Shown here in pieces: positions 31,497 through 41,888 of a stretch of 64,000 nt of DNA; positions within the stretch are counted from its first letter, which is position 1, and every line of letters begins with the position of its first letter. The stretch lies in the NCBI GenBank assembly GCA_963751455.1, contig CAVVUN010000011.1:33361-97360 (forward strand), in the 5' to 3' direction. This DNA comes from Nitrospirota bacterium (lineage in GTDB: Bacteria; Nitrospirota; UBA9217). Below the pieces are notes generated by a model. That model did no database searches and was not told the origin of the DNA. It saw only the letters and a list, made by a program, of their open reading frames with translations. A program made the position numbers and the translations under genes.

Positions 31497-32144
31497 ATGT
31501 CTGGCACTCTTTTCACAATCGGCTATTCAAACCGATCAATAGAGGATTTCATCGCCCTTCTCAAACAGCACAAGATCAGTGCGCTCTGCGACGTTCGATC
31601 CGCGCCCTACAGCAGCCGCAACCCGCGGTTCAACCGTGAGTTGCTCAAACAGTCGCTGAAATCTCATAATATCGAATATGTATTTCTTGGCGAGGAACTC
31701 GGAGCGAGGCCAAAAGACCTGTCATGCTATGTCGAGGGGAAGGCAATCTATGAAAAGATTGCTGCAGCAACTTTATTTAAAAAAGGCCTGGAACGAATCA
31801 AGCACGGCATGCAGAAAAATTACGTGATTGCCTTAATGTGCGCTGAAAAAGACCCAATAACATGCCATCGGACGATATTAATATGCAGAAATCTGCGCGC
31901 ACAGGGAATCGATATCCAGCATATCATTGATTACGAAACCACTGAATCGCAAGTTGACCTTGAGAAGCGTTTGATCGCACAATTGAAACTTCATCTCGAT
32001 ATGTTCAAAGACTCTGACCCGAATGGCGTGATCGAGCGCGCCTATGATATTCAGGGTGATCGGATTGCCTATGTTGAGAAAGGAGATACAGAAGTTGAAG
32101 AGATTACACCGGAAACTGAGAGAGAAGAGCATGAGCACTATTAA
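31497..32144 (+). CDS. DUF488 family protein
   Basis: TIGYS, DVRS.PYS, LG.RP and LMCAEKDP..CHR motifs. Confidence 0.9.
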   Translation: MSGTLFTIGYSNRSIEDFIALLKQHKISALCDVRSAPYSSRNPRFNRELLKQSLKSHNIEYVFLGEELGARPKDLSCYVEGKAIYEKIAAATLFKKGLERIKHGMQKNYVIALMCAEKDPITCHRTILICRNLRAQGIDIQHIIDYETTESQVDLEKRLIAQLKLHLDMFKDSDPNGVIERAYDIQGDRIAYVEKGDTEVEEITPETEREEHEHY

Positions 32145-32454
32145 AATTTATACAATCGGGTTCACCCAGAAAAAGCTCTTCCAGGTGGAAAAGGAGACAG
32201 CCCACGATTTCTTCCGGACCATGGAGATCCAAAGCTCGGCCGCTGCAGTGGAGAATATCCTGCTCGCTGCCACGTCCCTTGGGCTCGGCACAGTCTGGCT
32301 CGGCGTACTCTATCTTATGAAAGATCAAGTGCTCCGGTTCCTTGGAGAACCCGAAGGCGAGTTCATGGCTGTTGTGCCGGTCGGCCGGCCTGCAAGGGTC
32401 AGCAGCGGACCGAAAAAGCAGCCAGTTGAGATGAAGGTGAAGTTATTGGGCTGA
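32131..32454 (+). pseudogene. Chimera: second DUF488 start fused to a duplicated nitroreductase 3' end
   Basis: MSTIKIYTIGFTQK followed by sequence nearly identical to 24427-24709. Confidence 0.85.
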
Positions 32455-32814: not shown

Positions 32815-34257
32815 TTAGTACTTCGTCTCAACGATATGACCGGTTCTGCCGGAACAGGGATAGCCCATCTGGTTCTTGTGCGGATTCAGAGAAGTGTCGT
32901 ATGAACTGCGGTTAAGTTTCTTCTCACAGTAGGGGCACTGAATGACATATGTGGGACCCCAGTTTGTTTTGATCTTTGCTGTTCTTCGTGGCGTCGAAAA
33001 TGGCTTACTTGCTCTCGGTGACCGTGCTACACGTGCGGGGGCAGTGCGCCTGGTGGTGGGCGGCGCAAAGATCGGAGCGGCAGGCGTGAGCTCGATTACA
33101 TAACGCGGCTTGAATGAAACAGTAGACGCTTCGGCGCTTTGGAACCGATCAACCCGATACGATCTGGGCTCTCCTGTTTCGTGCTTGACAGCAGCAAGCA
33201 GAAGGTTGCCGTCCTTGGATCGTCTCAGAGAATACGGCTCGATTAACCGCCTGGTCCCATTGTACCCCAGCACAACACAAAGCCTGTTAGCTGCTGCGAA
33301 CCGTACCACTTCAAGCGGCACTGGTGCATGCCATGCATGACCCATCGACGGCGGCTGCCACGCGAGATCGACATCCACGCCGAAGGGCATAGGCGATTCT
33401 GCAACACCTTGCGGTTGTTCGCCGTGCAGCCAGGCAAAAACAGCAGGCAGTTCATTCCAGAACTGCGCGAAGTCTGGCAGCATCGGGAGCTGATGGCCAA
33501 GCATGTTTACCCATTCTGCCTCCAGTTCAGCCCGTTCGGGTCTGTTCTCGAGTGACTGCATGGTCGGCACAGGGATGCCTTTGAAAGCGCATTTCTGCTC
33601 AAGCGTCCTCAGGATCTGCTCGCGGCTGGCTTTCAGCTCCTCGTGCCGGAACAGATGGATCACATCATAGAGATCACGCGGCCGTTCCCGTTCAGCCAGA
33701 GCGCGTATCTTTTCAGCAAAGATTTCCTCGAAGCTGTAGCACCGTACATCAATGCCGTCATCAGGATTGTCCGAGTAGGGGTGGTGGACTTCGCGGGAGA
33801 CGGGTTCAAGTACAAGCACTTCGTCATTGGTAAAATCCAACTTAATTCTTGGCAGATCGCCGCGCGGCTGGAGCGGGCCGCGATAGCCGATCTTGCCTTG
33901 CGCAGAGACCTTGCCTCGCGAGTTAGTATATATTTCAAACCGTATTGCGTTCTCCGGGATCTCGATACCCGTATTGTCGTAAACCCATTGCGTCACGCCG
34001 GCAAATGATCGCTTCAGGAAATCCTGATCAAGATGGGCGGCAGCGGTGAGCGTAAAATCGAGGTCTTCGGAAAAGCGGTAGGTTTCGAAGAAGCACTTCT
34101 TGATGCAGGTCCCCCCCTTGAATACCCATGAAGGGCCGAGCTCCGCATGACTCGCTATTCCAGCCAGGAACCAGCCGAGGACATAGTCCTTTTCAACAAC
34201 GTTCGGTGCGAGCGCGAACTCTCTCGCAAACTCCATGATTTCCTGTCTGTCAATCAC
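32815..34257 (-). CDS. abiEii: AbiEii nucleotidyltransferase toxin fused to a WYL domain and a Zn-finger-like tail
   Basis: EKDY, FKGGT, RFSEDLDF, AEKIRA and PRDLYD motifs, then R.IEPYSL...RSYRVDR (WYL) and CPYC..H..C. Confidence 0.88.
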   Translation of the reverse strand: MIDRQEIMEFAREFALAPNVVEKDYVLGWFLAGIASHAELGPSWVFKGGTCIKKCFFETYRFSEDLDFTLTAAAHLDQDFLKRSFAGVTQWVYDNTGIEIPENAIRFEIYTNSRGKVSAQGKIGYRGPLQPRGDLPRIKLDFTNDEVLVLEPVSREVHHPYSDNPDDGIDVRCYSFEEIFAEKIRALAERERPRDLYDVIHLFRHEELKASREQILRTLEQKCAFKGIPVPTMQSLENRPERAELEAEWVNMLGHQLPMLPDFAQFWNELPAVFAWLHGEQPQGVAESPMPFGVDVDLAWQPPSMGHAWHAPVPLEVVRFAAANRLCVVLGYNGTRRLIEPYSLRRSKDGNLLLAAVKHETGEPRSYRVDRFQSAEASTVSFKPRYVIELTPAAPIFAPPTTRRTAPARVARSPRASKPFSTPRRTAKIKTNWGPTYVIQCPYCEKKLNRSSYDTSLNPHKNQMGYPCSGRTGHIVETKY

Positions 34258-35065
34258 CGGTTTTCTCCCTGGTCCATGCCGCAGGCACCCACAGTTTCCA
34301 TGCCGTAATGAGTCGGTCTGACGGCAAGGAAGGATCGAGTTTCGCGTTTCCGGCGGTCAAACGCAACCGACAGGCTTCAATCAGGTTCTTCTCATCTTTA
34401 GCGATCCGTTCCGCAAGAAAACCGAGGCGTTTGAAGACCGCGCCATTTCCGAGCCGGTCAGCATAGGAAATGAGCAAACTGATATCCTTCTGATCTGATT
34501 TCAGATAGCTTTTGAACACGTCCACGAATGGACGGAGACCGCCGCCAAGAGACGGATCGTTCAACATGTCCAGGATTGTTCGGGTCTGATCGGAGACATT
34601 GACCTTTACCTGCCCCCGCCATATCGGTTTCATCCCGAACAGCGCTTTCTGCGGGACGGTCCTGATGAGGAAATTCGTGCCCTTGATCGACGGCTTTCTG
34701 TCGCGCGGCTTCCGGATCGTCATCACAATGATCGTGCGAAAGAGCTGCTCCGTCATGCCCCAATATTCAGCAGCGGACCATCCGCCGAGATAGCAGGGTG
34801 AATAAAGCTGTTCAGCTATGATCCAGGGATCTTCGAGCGCAATGTCGGGTGTGCGGGCTTCGAGCGGCACAGGGACGTACAGGCCTTGACGCACGCGTGA
34901 AAGCCAGCCCTGATTCGCCCAGCGGGCAAGGAGCTTGGATGCGGCAGGGGCGGGGAGGCTCAGAATCTTTGCTGCTTGCTCAACCGTGATCGTGCCCTTT
35001 GTCTCGCGAATGATTTGAGCGAGACGGATTCGTGATTCTTTTCCTATTCCAGCAACAGTTTTCAT
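34250..35065 (-). CDS. abiEi: AbiEi type IV TA antitoxin / transcriptional regulator
   Basis: N-terminal wHTH (GWLSRVRQGLY), YLGGWSAAEYWG, RTILD and KRLGFL motifs; TAGTATATT/AATATACTA inverted repeat upstream. Confidence 0.88.
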   Translation of the reverse strand: MKTVAGIGKESRIRLAQIIRETKGTITVEQAAKILSLPAPAASKLLARWANQGWLSRVRQGLYVPVPLEARTPDIALEDPWIIAEQLYSPCYLGGWSAAEYWGMTEQLFRTIIVMTIRKPRDRKPSIKGTNFLIRTVPQKALFGMKPIWRGQVKVNVSDQTRTILDMLNDPSLGGGLRPFVDVFKSYLKSDQKDISLLISYADRLGNGAVFKRLGFLAERIAKDEKNLIEACRLRLTAGNAKLDPSLPSDRLITAWKLWVPAAWTREKTGD

Positions 35066-35704: not shown

Positions 35705-36535
35705 ATGTCAAATAACCGGGAATCAATCGAAGACAAAGCTGTAGAATTTATTCGAAACGAATTATCAAAATCCTCGCCCTCAACTCGACGGAGGGTTTTT
35801 GAGAAGTTTATGCTTGCAGCTTTAGGCAGCATCCCATGGGTGGGTGGATTTATAAGTGCGGCAGTGAGCGCCAAGATGGAGGAGGGCAAGGCTCGCACAA
35901 CCAGTTTGCAGAATGAATGGCTGGAAGAACATACAAAAAAGATAAAGCGCCTTGCTGAAACGCTCAATGAAATAGCAGCGCGATTTGAGGCATTGGGAGA
36001 ACAAATTGACGATCGGATCCAAAGTGAACAATATCTTGATGTAGTCAGAAAAGCGTTTAGAGCCTGGGATCATGCCGATACTGACGAAAAACGCAAATAT
36101 GCTGCCAATATTGTCGCAAATTCAAGTGGAACAAAATTGTGTTCGGATGATATTGTTCGATTATTTATTGATTGGCTGGGAACATATCACGAGTCCCACT
36201 TCGCAGTTATTCGAAAAATTTACCAAAAACCCGGTGTCACGCGATATGATATTTGGCAAGAACTACATGGCGAGTTCCCTCGTGAAGATTCAGCAGAAGC
36301 TGACCTTTTTAGACTGCTGATAAGAGACCTCAGCACAGGGGGTGTCATCCGGCAAGCACGTGATACAACCGAAGACGGCCAATTTCTGAGAAAACATCCA
36401 TCACGTTCGAAAGGCCGAACCCCGACAACCATGGAGTCAGCTTTTGAGGATTCAAAACCATATGTTCTAACAGAACTTGGGAAGCAATTCGTTCATTATA
36501 CGATGACGGAAGTGGTTCCGAGGATTAGCTCCTAA
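35705..36535 (+). CDS. Hypothetical protein, Abi-alpha/DUF4393-like
   Basis: GSIPWVGG helix, EKRKYAANI and C-terminal LTELGKQF wHTH-like end. Confidence 0.6.
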   Translation: MSNNRESIEDKAVEFIRNELSKSSPSTRRRVFEKFMLAALGSIPWVGGFISAAVSAKMEEGKARTTSLQNEWLEEHTKKIKRLAETLNEIAARFEALGEQIDDRIQSEQYLDVVRKAFRAWDHADTDEKRKYAANIVANSSGTKLCSDDIVRLFIDWLGTYHESHFAVIRKIYQKPGVTRYDIWQELHGEFPREDSAEADLFRLLIRDLSTGGVIRQARDTTEDGQFLRKHPSRSKGRTPTTMESAFEDSKPYVLTELGKQFVHYTMTEVVPRISS

Positions 36536-36572
36536 TACATTAACATGAACAACTGCTGTTGAAAGGTACGAA

Positions 36573-38003
36573 ATGGACATTAAATCTATAAGGCTCGAAA
36601 ATTTTAAGGGGTTCAAAAACGCTACTCTGCCGTTGAAACCACTCACTGTCCTTCTTGGCCCTAACAGCGCAGGCAAATCGTCCTTTGGTCAAGCCCTGGT
36701 CGCCTTAAGTAAGAGCAATGCCAGCAAGGGTATTCCTAGTCTGAAGTTCGATCCGACTTCATCTGTTGAATTCGGAAGTTATTCAGATTTAGTGCACCAA
36801 GGAAACGCTGATCAGCCTGTTATTATCGAGTTAGGATTGACTTCGGGGAAAGTGACACTCGCTTTTGGAAAAGCGAATAAACTGGCGGGGGTCAATGAGC
36901 TGGATCTTGAATCATTCAATTATGATATTCTTCCTCGTGACTATGGTTCAGCACAGACATTGATACCTATCGTCGTAGACTCGAAGAATAGATTGGTAAG
37001 CGAGGTGAAACGCAACAACATCTCAGATTGGACGGTCATTAACGCCAATAACGAGGCCCATTTTTATAAGCTCGACGTTGACGGAGTAATTTCGATCACG
37101 AGCGCTTCTGATTTAACTGTGACAACGGGAATGGGGGTTCCAAAACCTGTTCCCGTTGAAGAAGCACTGCCTGGATTCAAACTGAAATCTGAAGACCTTG
37201 GTAGCCTCTTAAGAAGTATTTCCTACCTCAGACCAGATAGGCATAAGCCTGAAAGATCACGTCCTATTAATCCATCTGATAGTGCATGCATAGATGATTG
37301 GGGTGGCGGTACAGACCTGTTTATTTATAAGAATAGAGATTTGAAAACCGAGGTATTTTTCTTCCCCCATCTCCCTCTATTGACCAAAGAAGAAGCGAAG
37401 AAGAGTCTATCAACATATTCGCAGCTAGTGGCCTATGAAATGGAGTTTCTCCCGGCCTTAACCAAATGGCTTACTGAACTTGACTTGGCTTCCTTTCTTG
37501 ATGTCAAATCGATTGATCGAGAACGCTTAATACAATTAATTGTCACGCCGAGTAAGCAAAAACATGCACGACCGTTGACAGACGTTGGCTTCGGGCTGAG
37601 CCAAGTACTCCCAATTCTTGCTAAGGGCCTCAGTTTAGAAAAAAATGGATTGTTGGTAGTTGAACAACCAGAAGCTCAACTCCACCCAAGCCCCCAAGCG
37701 GCGCTTGCAGATTTCTTTTGTTCTATGGTCAAATGTACACGGAATGTTCTCGTCGAAACTCACTCTATAGAACTCTTTCACAGATTAAGATTGCGAGCAT
37801 CAATGGATGATGAGTTAGCTCAACAAATTGCTGTCTATTTCATTCATGAACCTCAAGATGGTCATTGTAGCGAGCCTATAGCTGTACCGCTGCTAGAAAA
37901 AGACGAACTTGATTGGCCGAAAGGTTTTCTCCCTGAGGGAATTAAGAAGGAAATGGAAATTTTAGCCACGCGGTTAGCGGCCCGGAAGGAGAGAGTTAAG
38001 TGA
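36573..38003 (+). CDS. AAA_15/AAA_21 ABC-type ATPase with DUF3696 (Menshen NsnB-like)
   Basis: LENFKGF, Walker A GPNSAGKSS, DVGFGLSQVLP, Walker B VVEQPEAQLHP, ETHS and WPKGF motifs. Confidence 0.88.
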   Translation: MDIKSIRLENFKGFKNATLPLKPLTVLLGPNSAGKSSFGQALVALSKSNASKGIPSLKFDPTSSVEFGSYSDLVHQGNADQPVIIELGLTSGKVTLAFGKANKLAGVNELDLESFNYDILPRDYGSAQTLIPIVVDSKNRLVSEVKRNNISDWTVINANNEAHFYKLDVDGVISITSASDLTVTTGMGVPKPVPVEEALPGFKLKSEDLGSLLRSISYLRPDRHKPERSRPINPSDSACIDDWGGGTDLFIYKNRDLKTEVFFFPHLPLLTKEEAKKSLSTYSQLVAYEMEFLPALTKWLTELDLASFLDVKSIDRERLIQLIVTPSKQKHARPLTDVGFGLSQVLPILAKGLSLEKNGLLVVEQPEAQLHPSPQAALADFFCSMVKCTRNVLVETHSIELFHRLRLRASMDDELAQQIAVYFIHEPQDGHCSEPIAVPLLEKDELDWPKGFLPEGIKKEMEILATRLAARKERVK

Positions 38004-38959
38004 ATCCACTCTATCTCTTAGATCCGTGGCTTCTCGCTCTCAATAATGAAGATACGCAGGAAACCATTCTAAACCGCGGTAATGCATTGAGAATCATGAG
38101 TGAGCTTCATCGAACATATGGAATGCGACGGGTACAGTTCATAACCGAGGAGCAGATTTCTGATTTTTATATAAAAGCTAGTTGGCGCCGACGGGACGAT
38201 TACGTGGAAGTATTCCGAATTATTAGTAGCTTACTATTAGATGATGAAGCGGAAGGACGGCCAGCTGTAATAAAGGAAACACCATGCCCTACTCTTACTT
38301 CTCAATGGTTGACTGCGCTTGGCGCGCACGGGAGTAATGACTTGCCCCCAACGTGGCGAACGCCAATAATTTTTGTTCCCGAAATGAGATCTGGTGAATG
38401 GCCTAATCAAGACATAGATGGGCGCGAGCTTAAGTATAAAATCGACGACAGGACGGAAATCAATTCGCGGAATTTGGTTTCATTAGAGCGTTATGAAGAG
38501 CATCGCAATTTTGAACCCGATTTAGATCCTTGGCGGTATGGAGCTACAGGGAGACCACCTGAAACTGTGGGTGGAGCTGTGGATGAAAGGCGTGAGGCTC
38601 TTAGAAGGTTGCCACGACCTCCCGAAGATATTTTACCGCTGCATTTAACATTTTCAGAAATTGTACAACGTTTAGAACGACGTCTTGACTGGACTTGTGG
38701 GCGACCGGGGAGAGTATACTATATCCCCCCAGAAGGATGGGATCCCCGCACTAAATATCGGGAGGAATGGAGAAGCGGTGACGTTTTCCCAAAGGGATTC
38801 GTTAAAAAAGAAGATGGTAGCCGATATTATGGGCCAATTGATCGCGAAAAAAGAATCTGGTTATGGGATTTGAAAGAAAATCATCACTGGGACGTCCAGT
38901 TGCCAAACGGTAAACATTTAAACGTATCGCATGATGGCATTGCTCGGGAGCTGGATTAA
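38000..38959 (+). CDS. Putative effector with C-terminal Ntox17-like (BECR) ribonuclease domain
   Basis: GTGA overlap with the ATPase stop; C-terminal G.IDREKRIW.WD...HWDVQL...HLNVSHDG. Confidence 0.65.
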   Translation: MNPLYLLDPWLLALNNEDTQETILNRGNALRIMSELHRTYGMRRVQFITEEQISDFYIKASWRRRDDYVEVFRIISSLLLDDEAEGRPAVIKETPCPTLTSQWLTALGAHGSNDLPPTWRTPIIFVPEMRSGEWPNQDIDGRELKYKIDDRTEINSRNLVSLERYEEHRNFEPDLDPWRYGATGRPPETVGGAVDERREALRRLPRPPEDILPLHLTFSEIVQRLERRLDWTCGRPGRVYYIPPEGWDPRTKYREEWRSGDVFPKGFVKKEDGSRYYGPIDREKRIWLWDLKENHHWDVQLPNGKHLNVSHDGIARELD

Positions 38960-40443
38960 GTCCACTTTTCAAAAAAAATCTTTTGGTAAATTTCATCGTT
39001 GCAAAAGCACTCCGGCTCCTTTGCTCGTTTGACAGTCCAGTGTGTTGGCGGTATCCGCATTACATCATCCCAGATTATTAACGGCTCAGTCTGCCCCCTC
39101 TCTGCAAGAACCGGGTCAGATCGCTTAATCAGTTCTGCGGCCATCAAAATACCAGCCAATACTGATTGATGCGCCAAGGGTACTGTGGCTACTCGGCCAA
39201 TGCCGGCAAGATCAAGACCTACCTGCCCACAAATAACTCCCGAATATACATCTTGAACTCGCTTCCCTTTCCAATCGGCAAGTTTCCCTGGTGAAAGACT
39301 TAAATGGGTTTCAACTATTTTGATTACATCCGCTTCAATAGGTTTTTCAGTTACCCATAAGGCAACAAGCTGATCATGTGGTAATCCTAATGCCTGTGCT
39401 GCGAGCTCCGTTTGGCTGAGGCTGGCTTTTTTCGGCTGATAAAGACACGCTAGGCATGCACCATCCCCGATAAACCTGTGCCAGGACGCGCCGAGCCCGT
39501 TGTCACTCGTCCAACCGTTTACGACAAGACGCGGGAGGAGAGCCTGCGCTGTTCTACGGCCATCGATATTGTCTACGGACACACAGATAGAAGGAAGATT
39601 TTCGATGCCATCATAGTTCTTGGCAAAGTCTTCGATTGAACAAGGCCACACTCTGTGTGATAGTTTTGTGTTTGATAGTTGTCGTGCGGCTAATTGCGTT
39701 TTACCGAGACCAACATCATTGCGAAAGGCAAGGCAATAACGCTGAAGATTTGATAACTCAAGATCTTCAGGATCGATAAGGTGGAGTTCACCTATGAGTC
39801 CGTCATGTTTTGACCAAGCCCATAATGCAGGATTTCCAACGGCACCGAGACCAGCAACGGCTACTTCACCGATATTTACCTCGGGTAAAGTATCATTCGC
39901 GCCTGATTCTGTACCGTAATCAAGAAGAGAAAGAGAGATATCTGGAATCGTTTGTGCTGATGGAGCTTTTTGCGAAAATATAGTCTGAAAGACTCGCCAT
40001 GCTGCCAATGCAGCCGCAGCACCAGAGCTATAAGGATTGAGCGGACCATTTGCTTTGGAGTTCATTCCGACGTAAGCCACCCACCCATGAGCACTTGCCG
40101 TAAAACCATTCTCACTCGGGACCGCTTCGCCAAGATACACATTTATTGTCGTATTCTCAAGATTTGTCTTGATTTCAATATCAGGGTTGATTGCTAGAGC
40201 AATCTTGGAGAGGTATTCACATGCTGCGGTGTGTCCAGAAATTGCTAGAGTAGGATATAGACGAGCCAGAAGGTTCGCCAACAATTCAGAAATCCATTTT
40301 TCGTTTCCCTCGGTGCTGCATGGTTCGCCAGCATAAATACCGACTACATGACCAGAGAGAATCTTTTCAAGTTCCTCACGAGTAATCCCGAGATGCGCAC
40401 CAAGTGCCGAATAGGTCCGTGAAAAAAAAGGGGCAAGCGCCAT
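38956..40443 (-). CDS. E1/ThiF adenylation enzyme (BilD-like)
   Basis: Inactive N-terminal domain, GLGAVG, DPE..ELSNLQRY, VSVDN..GR, CLACLY, candidate catalytic VICG and ECFC. Confidence 0.88.
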   Translation of the reverse strand: MALAPFFSRTYSALGAHLGITREELEKILSGHVVGIYAGEPCSTEGNEKWISELLANLLARLYPTLAISGHTAACEYLSKIALAINPDIEIKTNLENTTINVYLGEAVPSENGFTASAHGWVAYVGMNSKANGPLNPYSSGAAAALAAWRVFQTIFSQKAPSAQTIPDISLSLLDYGTESGANDTLPEVNIGEVAVAGLGAVGNPALWAWSKHDGLIGELHLIDPEDLELSNLQRYCLAFRNDVGLGKTQLAARQLSNTKLSHRVWPCSIEDFAKNYDGIENLPSICVSVDNIDGRRTAQALLPRLVVNGWTSDNGLGASWHRFIGDGACLACLYQPKKASLSQTELAAQALGLPHDQLVALWVTEKPIEADVIKIVETHLSLSPGKLADWKGKRVQDVYSGVICGQVGLDLAGIGRVATVPLAHQSVLAGILMAAELIKRSDPVLAERGQTEPLIIWDDVMRIPPTHWTVKRAKEPECFCNDEIYQKIFFEKWT

Positions 40444-41078
40444 CAGATAGCTCCCGCAGGAGCCCAATTGACTGTTGGATTAGGCGGCTGTAAAATCAAG
40501 TTGGGATTTGCATTCAAGACACAAGTTTTCCATATAGTATCAATAGTGGAAAACAAACCAACATGCTTTCTGTATTGCATCCAGTCGTCGCCTGTGTGTT
40601 GAGGATGCTCGTGATATTCGCGAATGCCACGCATACATAAGAAAGGTTTTTTGGTTATAGGATGACCGTCCAGAAGCACATTAAAGCCCTTTCCATTATC
40701 GCCAATATGGTGCCCGCGATGAAGCTGATTGTATGAAAGCTCCTGCCATGTGAATGGATCACAAAAGACGACAGAAGGAGCTCGCTGGTCAAAATCATCA
40801 AGAGAAATTCTGACGCCAAATGATCGCGCAGCGAGATTGGGAATCTCGAAGGTTGCCATTTGAATTTTTATACTCCCCGGAATGATCAGATTGCCGCTTG
40901 GAGGTTGCACAGGAAGAGTCAGTTTTAGGTAGCTGCGTGGTATAAATACTGTTTCTATGATAGGGAATTCAATTTTCTGAATGACCACACCGCGCTGCCG
41001 TAACGTTTCCGACTGATTGCGCGCGCGTTCAATTTCTTGGTCAAATTTAAGTCTTGATACGCGAACATCTATTCTCAT
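40443..41078 (-). CDS. Prokaryotic E2-like protein (BilB-like)
   Basis: DFDQRAPSV.F.DP and HP.T.KPFLCMRG.REYH.HP.H motifs; ATGA coupling to E1. Confidence 0.8.
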   Translation of the reverse strand: MRIDVRVSRLKFDQEIERARNQSETLRQRGVVIQKIEFPIIETVFIPRSYLKLTLPVQPPSGNLIIPGSIKIQMATFEIPNLAARSFGVRISLDDFDQRAPSVVFCDPFTWQELSYNQLHRGHHIGDNGKGFNVLLDGHPITKKPFLCMRGIREYHEHPQHTGDDWMQYRKHVGLFSTIDTIWKTCVLNANPNLILQPPNPTVNWAPAGAI

Positions 41079-41341
41079 TCTTTCCCGCCAGCTCCAACCC
41101 TGAGATTAAGGAATAGACGAGTTCCATCAGTAAGGCCGAGTTCCTCAATTTTTTTGTCTGGGTCAAGAGGCTTACCCGCAGCGTTATGTATTTCCCATTC
41201 ATCCATAGGGCGCCCGGTATTATTACTGTCGGCTAAAGCGCGATTCCGGGCCTCCTTAAGCGGGCTGTGTAGGTTGGCTTCAACCCGAACGTCTACACCG
41301 TTTACAATGAATATTAACGTAATTGAATTTTTAGACGACAT
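41075..41341 (-). CDS. Ubiquitin-like protein (DUF2604/BilA-like)
   Basis: Beta-grasp pattern IVNG...WEI..AG..LD....GL.DG..LFL.L..GAGG-KE. Confidence 0.85.
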   Translation of the reverse strand: MSSKNSITLIFIVNGVDVRVEANLHSPLKEARNRALADSNNTGRPMDEWEIHNAAGKPLDPDKKIEELGLTDGTRLFLNLRVGAGGKE

Positions 41342-41360
41342 GGTGCCTCCATTTAGATGA

Positions 41361-41888
41361 TTAAATCTTTATTGAAATTCCCTTTTTATTGGAGTCGGTG
41401 GTATCTGGTTTTTCTTCAATTATAAATGTAGTTTTAACTTCTCTCGCTGATAACTTTTCCCATGACCCTTTGACTAGCCGATATGTGGCCCAATTATATA
41501 AGTCCGAAGGCCCAAAACCAAAATCCGGAACCACTATTGAAAAGCCACCTTCTGCCGTGACAATGCAATATCTGTCATCTGCACTCGAATGGTATGCTCG
41601 GCCTGGGTGACTGTGAACTTGAGCTAGCAATCGTAATCCGGTGCTTGATAATAATTTATTTAAGCTGAAAAGGGTTTCAGATGTTACGAAATATCCAACA
41701 CCATCTTCGCTTTTTATAGAATCTTGAGGAGGAACCAAAATTTTTGTTACATGGCTAGTTTGAACATTATCAATGTTTCCAAGCCACAATACTAGTCCCT
41801 CGCACTGCTGTTCACCAAACTCTCGAAGGCACTCACTCGTTTCGTTTAAAATATTATAGGGAATATATACTTTTTCAATTTGCTTCAT
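41361..41888 (-). CDS. JAB/JAMM peptidase (BilC-like)
   Basis: EGLVLWLG and QVHSHP..AYHS..DD motifs. Confidence 0.88.
   Translation of the reverse strand: MKQIEKVYIPYNILNETSECLREFGEQQCEGLVLWLGNIDNVQTSHVTKILVPPQDSIKSEDGVGYFVTSETLFSLNKLLSSTGLRLLAQVHSHPGRAYHSSADDRYCIVTAEGGFSIVVPDFGFGPSDLYNWATYRLVKGSWEKLSAREVKTTFIIEEKPDTTDSNKKGISIKI

Follow-up and report, generated by a model that had tools for sequence, protein, structure and literature searches.

A Menshen-like ATPase–effector pair linked to a type II Bil-like ubiquitin pathway: an apparently undescribed six-gene cassette from a Nitrospirota genome

A 64,000-nucleotide stretch of a Nitrospirota genome (GenBank assembly GCA_963751455.1, contig CAVVUN010000011.1, positions 33,361–97,360; hereafter the window) encodes an ABC ATPase and an overlapping effector gene that resemble the NsnB/NsnC pair of the anti-phage system Menshen, and the question raised by this locus is what takes the place of NsnA, the DUF262 protein of that system. 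An initial annotation of the window proposed a three-gene system that began with an Abi-alpha-like gene at 35705 and ended with the effector; it overlooked a four-gene operon for conjugation of a ubiquitin-like protein (Ubl) that adjoins the effector (38956–41888), and its three-gene boundary does not stand. Judged from gene content, a ubiquitin pathway of the type II Bil-like kind stands where NsnA would be expected. The comparisons below show six genes (JAB, ABC ATPase, effector, E1, E2, and Ubl) to be a single inherited mobile cassette.

Gene content of the cassette

The six genes, with lengths in amino acids (aa), are:

36573–38003, plus strand: NsnB-like OLD/ABC ATPase, 476 aa (Pfam AAA_15, E 3.5e-24, and AAA_21; PADLOC NsnB)
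38000–38959, plus strand: effector, 319 aa, with an N-terminal PIN-like domain (residues ~1–175) and a C-terminal Ntox37/Ntox17-related predicted RNase domain (residues ~235–317)
38956–40443, minus strand: E1, BilD-like, Prok-E2_C plus ThiF (Pfam ThiF, 4e-12, and Prok-E2_C, 2e-9; PADLOC BilD, 1.6e-12)
40443–41078, minus strand: E2, BilB-like, CEHH type, 211 aa (Pfam Metal_CEHH, 5.7e-22)
41075–41341, minus strand: Ubl, BilA-like, DUF2604, 88 aa (Pfam DUF2604, 3.8e-23)
41361–41888, minus strand: JAB/JAMM peptidase, BilC-like, 175 aa (Pfam Prok-JAB; PADLOC BilC, 2.2e-12)

The ATPase and effector genes share a GTGA start/stop overlap (38000–38003), as originally described, and the stop codons of the effector and E1 genes overlap by 4 base pairs (bp), tail-to-tail on opposite strands. 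The likely start of E1 is the ATG at 40443 (495 aa), the longest open reading frame (ORF) beginning at a TTG at 40467, and the likely start of the JAB gene is the ATG at 41888. The Bil-like operon, all on the minus strand, has 38–47% GC (38% for the longer JAB ORF). The three ORFs on which the initial annotation was built (35705–36535, 36573–38003, and 38000–38959) are co-directional and AT-rich as it stated, with 44–46% GC vs 51.4% for the genome.

According to the accessible text of Chambers (2023; bioRxiv 10.1101/2023.09.26.559546), the Ubl of Bil systems is cut back to its glycine by JAB, activated by E1, and handed on to target lysines by E2. Catalytic motifs are intact in all four Bil-type proteins of the window. 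The likely catalytic cysteine of E1 is C413 (Cys kept in 29/29, and in three outside E1s), and the window E1 is ~32–34% identical to rhizobial BilD. The motif around the E2 catalytic residue C148 is intact and is present in all full-length homologs. The Ubl ends in GAGG followed by a two-residue tail, with G83, A84, G85, and G86 invariant in 24/24 sequences; JAB, which carries an HSHP motif, would trim this tail. Some Ubls of other loci (L002:12914–13387, L020, L027, and L009) have long, charged, His/Glu-rich N-terminal extensions; diverse N-termini have been reported among Bil Ubls.

Conservation of the linkage

A metagenome scan was made with a pattern from a 47-sequence subset of effectors, which selects on the effector only and not on its neighbors. 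It returned 41 loci, of which 35 (L004–L038, with 33 distinct effectors) belong to the effector family; the six others have just the toxin domain in common with it and contain no Bil genes (L039–L043, and L044 of RHS type). E1 follows the effector in all 34 metagenome loci with enough DNA, and, where the DNA reaches, the ATPase precedes the effector (29/29), JAB precedes it (20/20), and E2 (23/23) and Ubl (22/22) are present; these gene contexts cover the scanned loci, a part of the 148 effector representatives described below. A scan of species genomes returned two loci, L001 in a deltaproteobacterial metagenome-assembled genome and L002 in Granulicella (Acidobacteriota), and both carry the linkage.

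L001 has the gene order of the window (JAB-Ubl-E2-E1). The commonest layout, found in L002 and 20 metagenome loci, has JAB-ATPase-effector converging on E1-E2-Ubl, so that the ATPase–effector pair sits among the Bil genes, flanked by JAB and E1. In most loci other than the window, JAB shares the strand of the ATPase gene and immediately precedes it, usually with an overlap of 1 or 4 bp. The linkage has outlasted a rearrangement that shifted JAB in the window and in L001, it holds at minimum identities of 25–33%, and the junctions vary from 37-bp overlaps to 24-bp gaps. Among 122 flanking ORFs no family occurs in more than two loci, and no seventh conserved gene was found; the flanking proteins scanned include integrases, conjugation proteins, and Thoeris, restriction, and AbiE genes. 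DUF262 is absent from the neighbors of the pair in the window and from the scanned part of the 122 flanking ORFs, 92 in number (90 belonging to linked loci, two to L039 and L043), in keeping with the initial annotation of a Menshen-like pair without DUF262, and the only DUF262 gene of the source genome sits on another contig.

In the 16 loci with six intact genes, mean identities are 58% for E1, E2, and JAB, 57% for Ubl, 47% for the ATPase, and 39% for the effector. Correlations (rho) between the identity matrices of these loci are 0.83 for ATPase–E1, 0.84 for E1–E2, 0.80 for ATPase–E2, 0.72 for effector–E2, and 0.69 for ATPase–effector, with JAB weakest (0.42–0.56); the values for ATPase–E1, ATPase–E2, effector–E2, and E1–E2 were reached by 0 of 2000 permutations. 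In quick trees (LG+G4, SH-aLRT only, with partial genes, L040, and L048 left out), the linked ATPases cluster together (SH-aLRT 100) and are separate from four non-Bil ATPases. The linked E1s likewise form one group (SH-aLRT 99) apart from two rhizobial BilD proteins and one distant E1, in a tree for which the tool gave a long-branch warning. The window branch is sister to all other linked copies in both trees. Co-divergence and trees show one origin and joint descent of the genes, as distinct from physical contact between their products. The cassette is rare: an effector profile matched none of 400 other genomes of the window's phylum, and a search of plasmids for the effector found none.

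The ATPase and the effector

The ATPase carries the ABC motifs and the WPKGF motif noted by the initial annotation (Walker A GPNSAGKS at aa 29, GFG signature at 338, ETHS (H-loop) at 395, and WPKGF at 448), but the set is not the complete canonical one, as Walker B reads LVVEQPE, a degenerate form resembling the one described for NsnB. Its best PADLOC model is NsnB (E 2.1e-54, aa 3–455), followed by PDC-M55A (3.5e-34), the HEC-03B model (4.8e-33), and AriA (5e-26). On the earlier description as a DUF3696 ATPase, WP.GF and a helix are conserved in the C-terminal region, but Pfam DUF3696 matches neither the window ATPase (E ≤ 0.1) nor any of four Bil-linked homologs (E ≤ 1); it matches 3/3 more distant non-Bil ATPases, two of them above cut-off. 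C383 and C432 are invariant in 23/23 Bil-linked ATPases and absent from four non-Bil relatives; these cysteines might carry Ubl as a thioester. In the sections available of Li (2025; PMC12065111), NsnC is described as an inactive PIN domain plus a variable toxin domain, and the C-terminal helices of NsnB-type ATPases are predicted to grip that PIN domain like a clamp, as in Septu and PARIS. By analogy, the cassette ATPase likely holds the effector inactive.

A word-based search recovered 20 effector proteins. The exhaustive one yielded 148 representatives (50% identity), almost all of them either fragments or 290–320 aa long; the alignment used here comprises the 128 full-length sequences, fragments left out. 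Near-invariant residues in the N-terminal part are D8, W103, W119-R120-P122, W134, D174-x-D176-P-W, and L204-P205, and in the C-terminal part P243, W257-R258, F263, G278, D281, W287, W289, H296-W-D298-V-Q300, and G313, with H296 kept in 123 of the 128 sequences and D298 in 127. The C-terminal motifs first noted in the window are confirmed (GPID..RIW.WD at 278, HWDVQL at 296, and HLNVSHDG at 306). In the supposedly inactive N-domain, D8, H168, D174, and D176 are conserved; of the PIN acidic set, only D8 is clearly kept.

The window effector has no match in Pfam, NCBIfam, or PADLOC. The PADLOC models NsnC and AriB, and TOPRIM models, matched none of the 128 homologs, so that the end-to-end NsnC or AriB match by which the initial annotation would have been refuted did not appear (0/128), and the only PADLOC partner model near the effector is PDC-M60A (2/128, E 0.002). 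The nearest Pfam model is Ntox37 (PF15535), weakly matched by 10/128 homologs (best E 0.0043), with motif and beta-meander present; a score of 14.5 bits stands against its cut-off of 27.8. Ntox17 (PF15524) matches 1/128 homologs (E 0.094) and, in distant non-Bil relatives, reaches E 0.001–0.24 (12–20 bits vs a cut-off of 25). No Ntox37 or Ntox17 match of the family or its relatives reaches the curated cut-off. We do not retain "Ntox17" as a firm label for the effector. Sequence searches of the PDB with the effector gave nothing useful, and an Atlas search gave only scores of 0.81 or less.

In a predicted model of the whole effector (pLDDT 78), residues 1–170 align with PIN/VapC proteins (Z 3.6–4.4; seven of the 50 matches listed are titled PIN or VapBC). 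Several further matches of this domain are presumably PIN proteins as well. The C-domain model (pLDDT 93) consists of a short helix and six antiparallel strands; the best of its 11 listed fold matches is the colicin E3 cytotoxic domain (4v5k_AY; Z 3.1, rmsd 3.6, 67 aligned residues), and the fourth is a CdiA-CT toxin (4ntq_A; Z 2.4). We take both to be toxins that cut ribosomal RNA (rRNA). The effector is read here as a weakly PIN-like, likely inactive N-domain and a C-domain that is a predicted RNase related to Ntox37/Ntox17.

A profile of the effector N-domain does not match the partners in the non-Bil loci L039–L043, in which only the C-domain matches. The C-domain also tips the RHS-type toxin in L044 (hhalign probability 97%), a match that is partly circular in that L044 was found by the toxin motif itself. 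Because the C-domain tips this RHS-type protein, its origin from polymorphic toxins, as first proposed, is supported to that extent; the fold matches to RNases are weak.

Proposed mechanism and alternative explanations

We give an even chance to the following reading, which leans on gene content and on analogy with Bil and Menshen: that the cassette is an abortive-infection anti-phage system, in which the Bil cascade would replace the NsnA/DUF262 sensor and Ubl conjugates would trigger release of the RNase. An oligomer of the ATPase would hold the effector via its PIN-like domain. On infection, Ubl conjugates would form, with phage proteins or the ATPase complex itself as targets, and would shift the nucleotide state of the ATPase, freeing the effector. 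The freed colicin E3-like C-domain would then cut host RNA, probably rRNA, and translation would stop. JAB, which would usually share a transcript with ATPase and effector, would remove stray conjugates and so set a threshold. The more specific proposal is somewhat more tentative and falls short of even: that the free Ubl tag would act as a signal and not as a steric block, with conjugates read by, or placed on, the ABC ATPase, release of a ribosome-cutting RNase of polymorphic-toxin type, and JAB setting the threshold.

Several observations weigh against the abortive-infection reading. The linkage between the Bil-like genes and the pair is shown at the genetic level, and a molecular link is inferred; co-divergence follows from shared descent alone, and kin loci are not independent. 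In L001 (10001–12461), effector and E1 are both frameshifted, through decay or assembly error, with ATPase, E2, and Ubl intact. A clade-specific invariant lysine was sought in the ATPase, with only the Walker A lysine and K22 (19/23) found, and no lysine of the effector is conserved in more than 50%; with no such lysine, there is no obvious conjugation site in either protein. The PIN matches of the N-domain are tied with unrelated Rossmann-like folds, and Foldseek found no PDB entry at E ≤ 0.001 with either the complete effector or the C-domain. Since the fold matches (Z 3.1 for the C-domain, 3.6–4.4 for the N-domain) are weak and lie in the tool's common range, the RNase activity and target of the effector remain predictions. 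L039–L043 pair the toxin domain with more distant ATPases without Bil genes, and canonical rhizobial type II Bil loci (L045 and L046, on two plasmids, these being the two of twelve plasmid E1 matches whose neighborhoods were examined) read Ubl-E2-JAB-E1 with no ATPase or effector within 6 kb. The reverse test, which starts from E1 and asks whether this E1 clade always accompanies the pair, gave too few new loci to count.

Given such non-Bil pairs and pair-less Bil operons, each half can stand alone in other lineages. Both halves having stand-alone relatives, they could be two independent defense layers, fused once and since held together only by the overlap of their convergent genes and by moving as a unit, without any contact between their products; the convergent orientation implies separate transcripts, and a JAB gene upstream of the ATPase makes the loss of either half harder. 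We hold this to be distinctly improbable, as neither half has been lost in the 34 informative loci and two genomes despite minimum identities of 25–33%, variable junctions, and at least one rearrangement, and as all other neighbors have been exchanged freely.

The same linkage and co-divergence also fit a guard arrangement, in which the Bil half would defend by itself through the tagging of virion proteins and the pair would fire once the Bil machinery is inhibited or depleted by a phage protein, much as restriction systems have a back-up in PARIS and PrrC. A related pair in L043 stands directly behind a type IIG gene, which would fit a module that can be added to one first-line defense or another, and the missing conjugation lysine is as a guard would have it. 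No anti-Bil trigger was identified in this analysis, however, and a guard explains neither why JAB moved to the operon of the ATPase nor why two cysteines are invariant in this clade alone; we regard a guard as unlikely, though a reading to be reckoned with.

If conjugation is indeed the trigger, Ubl tagging in bacteria would serve as an immune signal that ends in suicide of the cell, a logic known from eukaryotic innate immunity. The fixed linkage suggests that ubiquitin-style tagging may be an alarm by which bacteria likely switch on a suicide defense against phage. A complete E1-E2-Ubl-deubiquitinase cascade is kept with an ATPase-gated toxin across several phyla, and the cassette has a fair chance of representing a new signaling logic. 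The locus also shows the NsnB/NsnC module to be a plug-in missed by DUF262-centered surveys, and Ntox17/37-type domains to be open to study in a clonable intracellular setting.

Related loci outside the cassette group

In L039 (3966–6766), L041, and L042 (394–3281), a DUF3696-type ABC ATPase carries an additional N-terminal domain of ~180 aa with no Pfam match. The partner encoded next combines the HWDVQ toxin domain with another kind of N-domain, and neither DUF262 nor Bil genes were seen. By its domain content, this arrangement is a further sensor swap on the NsnB/NsnC chassis. In L043 (217–6307), a type IIG restriction–modification gene stands directly before the genes for a DUF3696 ATPase and an effector of Ntox17-like type, which may be a guard arrangement. 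In L044 (122–1368), the gene behind the RHS-type toxin cassette codes for 218 aa, matches no Pfam model, and is a candidate for the immunity function.

A search for E1 in 400 more genomes of the phylum of L002 gave one distant match (27%), with JAB and E1 only and no pair, and E1 was not found in viral contigs. A search with PF14455 in 400 + 400 genomes gave one weak new match (G703). L051 (7331–14560; genome G748) carries JAB and a distant E1 without E2 or DUF2604 matches, beside a 1690-aa gene, and is possibly another system; the gene preceding its JAB and E1 is, we presume, ImmA/IrrE-like.

The 35705 gene and the defense island

Upstream of the pair lie:

35705–36535, plus strand: 276-aa gene, possibly Abi-alpha-related, of a widespread family; a defense-island neighbor and not a member of the system
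32815–35065, minus strand: AbiEi/AbiEii pair, AbiEii with a C-terminal WYL domain and a Zn-ribbon-like tail
31497–32454: DUF488 gene (PADLOC PDC-M45B, E 1e-71), then a short ORF

The first of these was the third member of the system as initially proposed, a Menshen-like set in which it would replace DUF262. Its strand, the 37-bp gap to the ATPase gene, its similar GC content, and an Atlas lead to Abi_alpha all suit that proposal, which is otherwise largely refuted and now very improbable. None of the 18 metagenome loci whose DNA reaches far enough upstream contains the gene, and it is absent from L001 and L002; thus the survey of neighborhoods that the initial annotation called for agrees with it on the absence of DUF262 from the flanks and goes against it on this gene, which never accompanied the pair there. 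Its family is large and strongly conserved (3,984 homolog clusters, more than 100 at 66% or more), and around one 66%-identical homolog (in genome G292) none of the six cassette genes occurs within 16 kb. With no matching locus, a family of thousands, and a homolog without the pair, we rejected it as a cassette member. The protein has no Pfam match above cut-off and none to Abi-alpha (PF14337) at E ≤ 0.1, and its Atlas look-alike cluster (25% PF14337, score 0.94) is a lead only. On sequence grounds, it is possibly an Abi-alpha-related stand-alone defense gene and, together with the AbiEi/AbiEii-WYL pair, is island cargo. A 98%-identical AbiE copy lies on contig C1, where the AbiEii match spans 390 of 480 aa. 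The short ORF after the DUF488 gene starts DUF488-like and ends as a nitroreductase fragment, which suggests a deletion scar.

Comparison with known systems

The Bil-like half has the same four families as type II BilABCD (DUF2604 Ubl, CEHH-type E2, JAB, and two-domain E1), with catalytic residues kept. The cassette differs in layout and content from type II BilABCD, the "6C/CEHH" operons of Iyer et al. (2006, PMC1779556), in which Ubl-E2-DUB-E1 form a single operon with no effector, and in the loci covered its E1 group, distinct from rhizobial BilD, is always joined to ATPase and toxin. In known Bil systems a phage tail protein is tagged upon infection; they have no effector and are thought to spoil phage tail proteins physically, and the downstream meaning of the Ubl tag in bacteria is named as an open question (all as summarized in the accessible parts of Gong, 2024). 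The accessible text of Chambers (2023) has no matches for "ATPase," "nuclease," or "toxin," and its Supplementary Table 1 of 162 operons notes no such genes and no Granulicella.

With Menshen (NsnABC), the cassette shares an NsnB-like ATPase, of the NsnB type in its degenerate Walker B and GxG signature, and an overlapping gene whose product joins a weakly PIN-like N-domain to an exchangeable, predicted toxin domain at the C-terminus. It lacks the upstream NsnA (ParB-DUF262), and we did not file it as Menshen; Pfam DUF3696 does not match its ATPase. The Menshen effectors named in the available sections of Li (2025) are Ntox18 and Ntox21, in contrast to the Ntox37/17-related cassette effector, and those sections have no matches for "ubiquit," "JAB," "Bil," or "ThiF"; "Menshen" does not occur in the accessible portion of the Millman 2022 preprint. 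The trigger of Menshen is also an open question, and the cassette makes the Bil and Menshen questions testable in one construct.

HEC-03, PDC-M55, PARIS, and Septu follow the same logic of an ATPase-gated effector but have PIN, TOPRIM, or HNH partners, unlike the cassette effector, and no ubiquitin machinery; the TOPRIM (DUF4435) partner of PARIS has no counterpart in the cassette, nor did any of the 128 homologs match AriB or TOPRIM models. Type II CBASS (Cap2 E1-E2, Cap3 JAB) and the FtsH ternary systems of Kaur et al. (2020, PMC7159879) combine Ubl conjugation with a cell-damaging effector, as the cassette is proposed to do. Type II CBASS, however, conjugates its cyclase and uses a nucleotide signal, whereas in the cassette the Ubl is free and there is an ABC ATPase but neither a cyclase nor an E3; the FtsH ternary systems, according to the same text, have vWA-MoxR/AAA+ proteins, RING E3s, and caspase-like effectors, unlike the cassette. 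The H296-W-D298 motif of the effector agrees with the Hx[DH] motif and small, mostly-beta domain given for Ntox37 in the accessible text of Zhang et al. (2012, PMC3482391). Unlike Ntox37/Ntox17 tips and colicin E3-like (BECR) RNases, the cassette effector is intracellular, fused to a PIN-like domain, and has no immunity gene.

In the literature covered, no paper was found that joins Bil/6C operons to an ABC ATPase and toxin; Krishnan 2020 and the journal Bil papers lay outside this scope and could mention it. The six-gene system is real and conserved, and is apparently undescribed, with a Menshen-like effector half and another half that is Bil-like.

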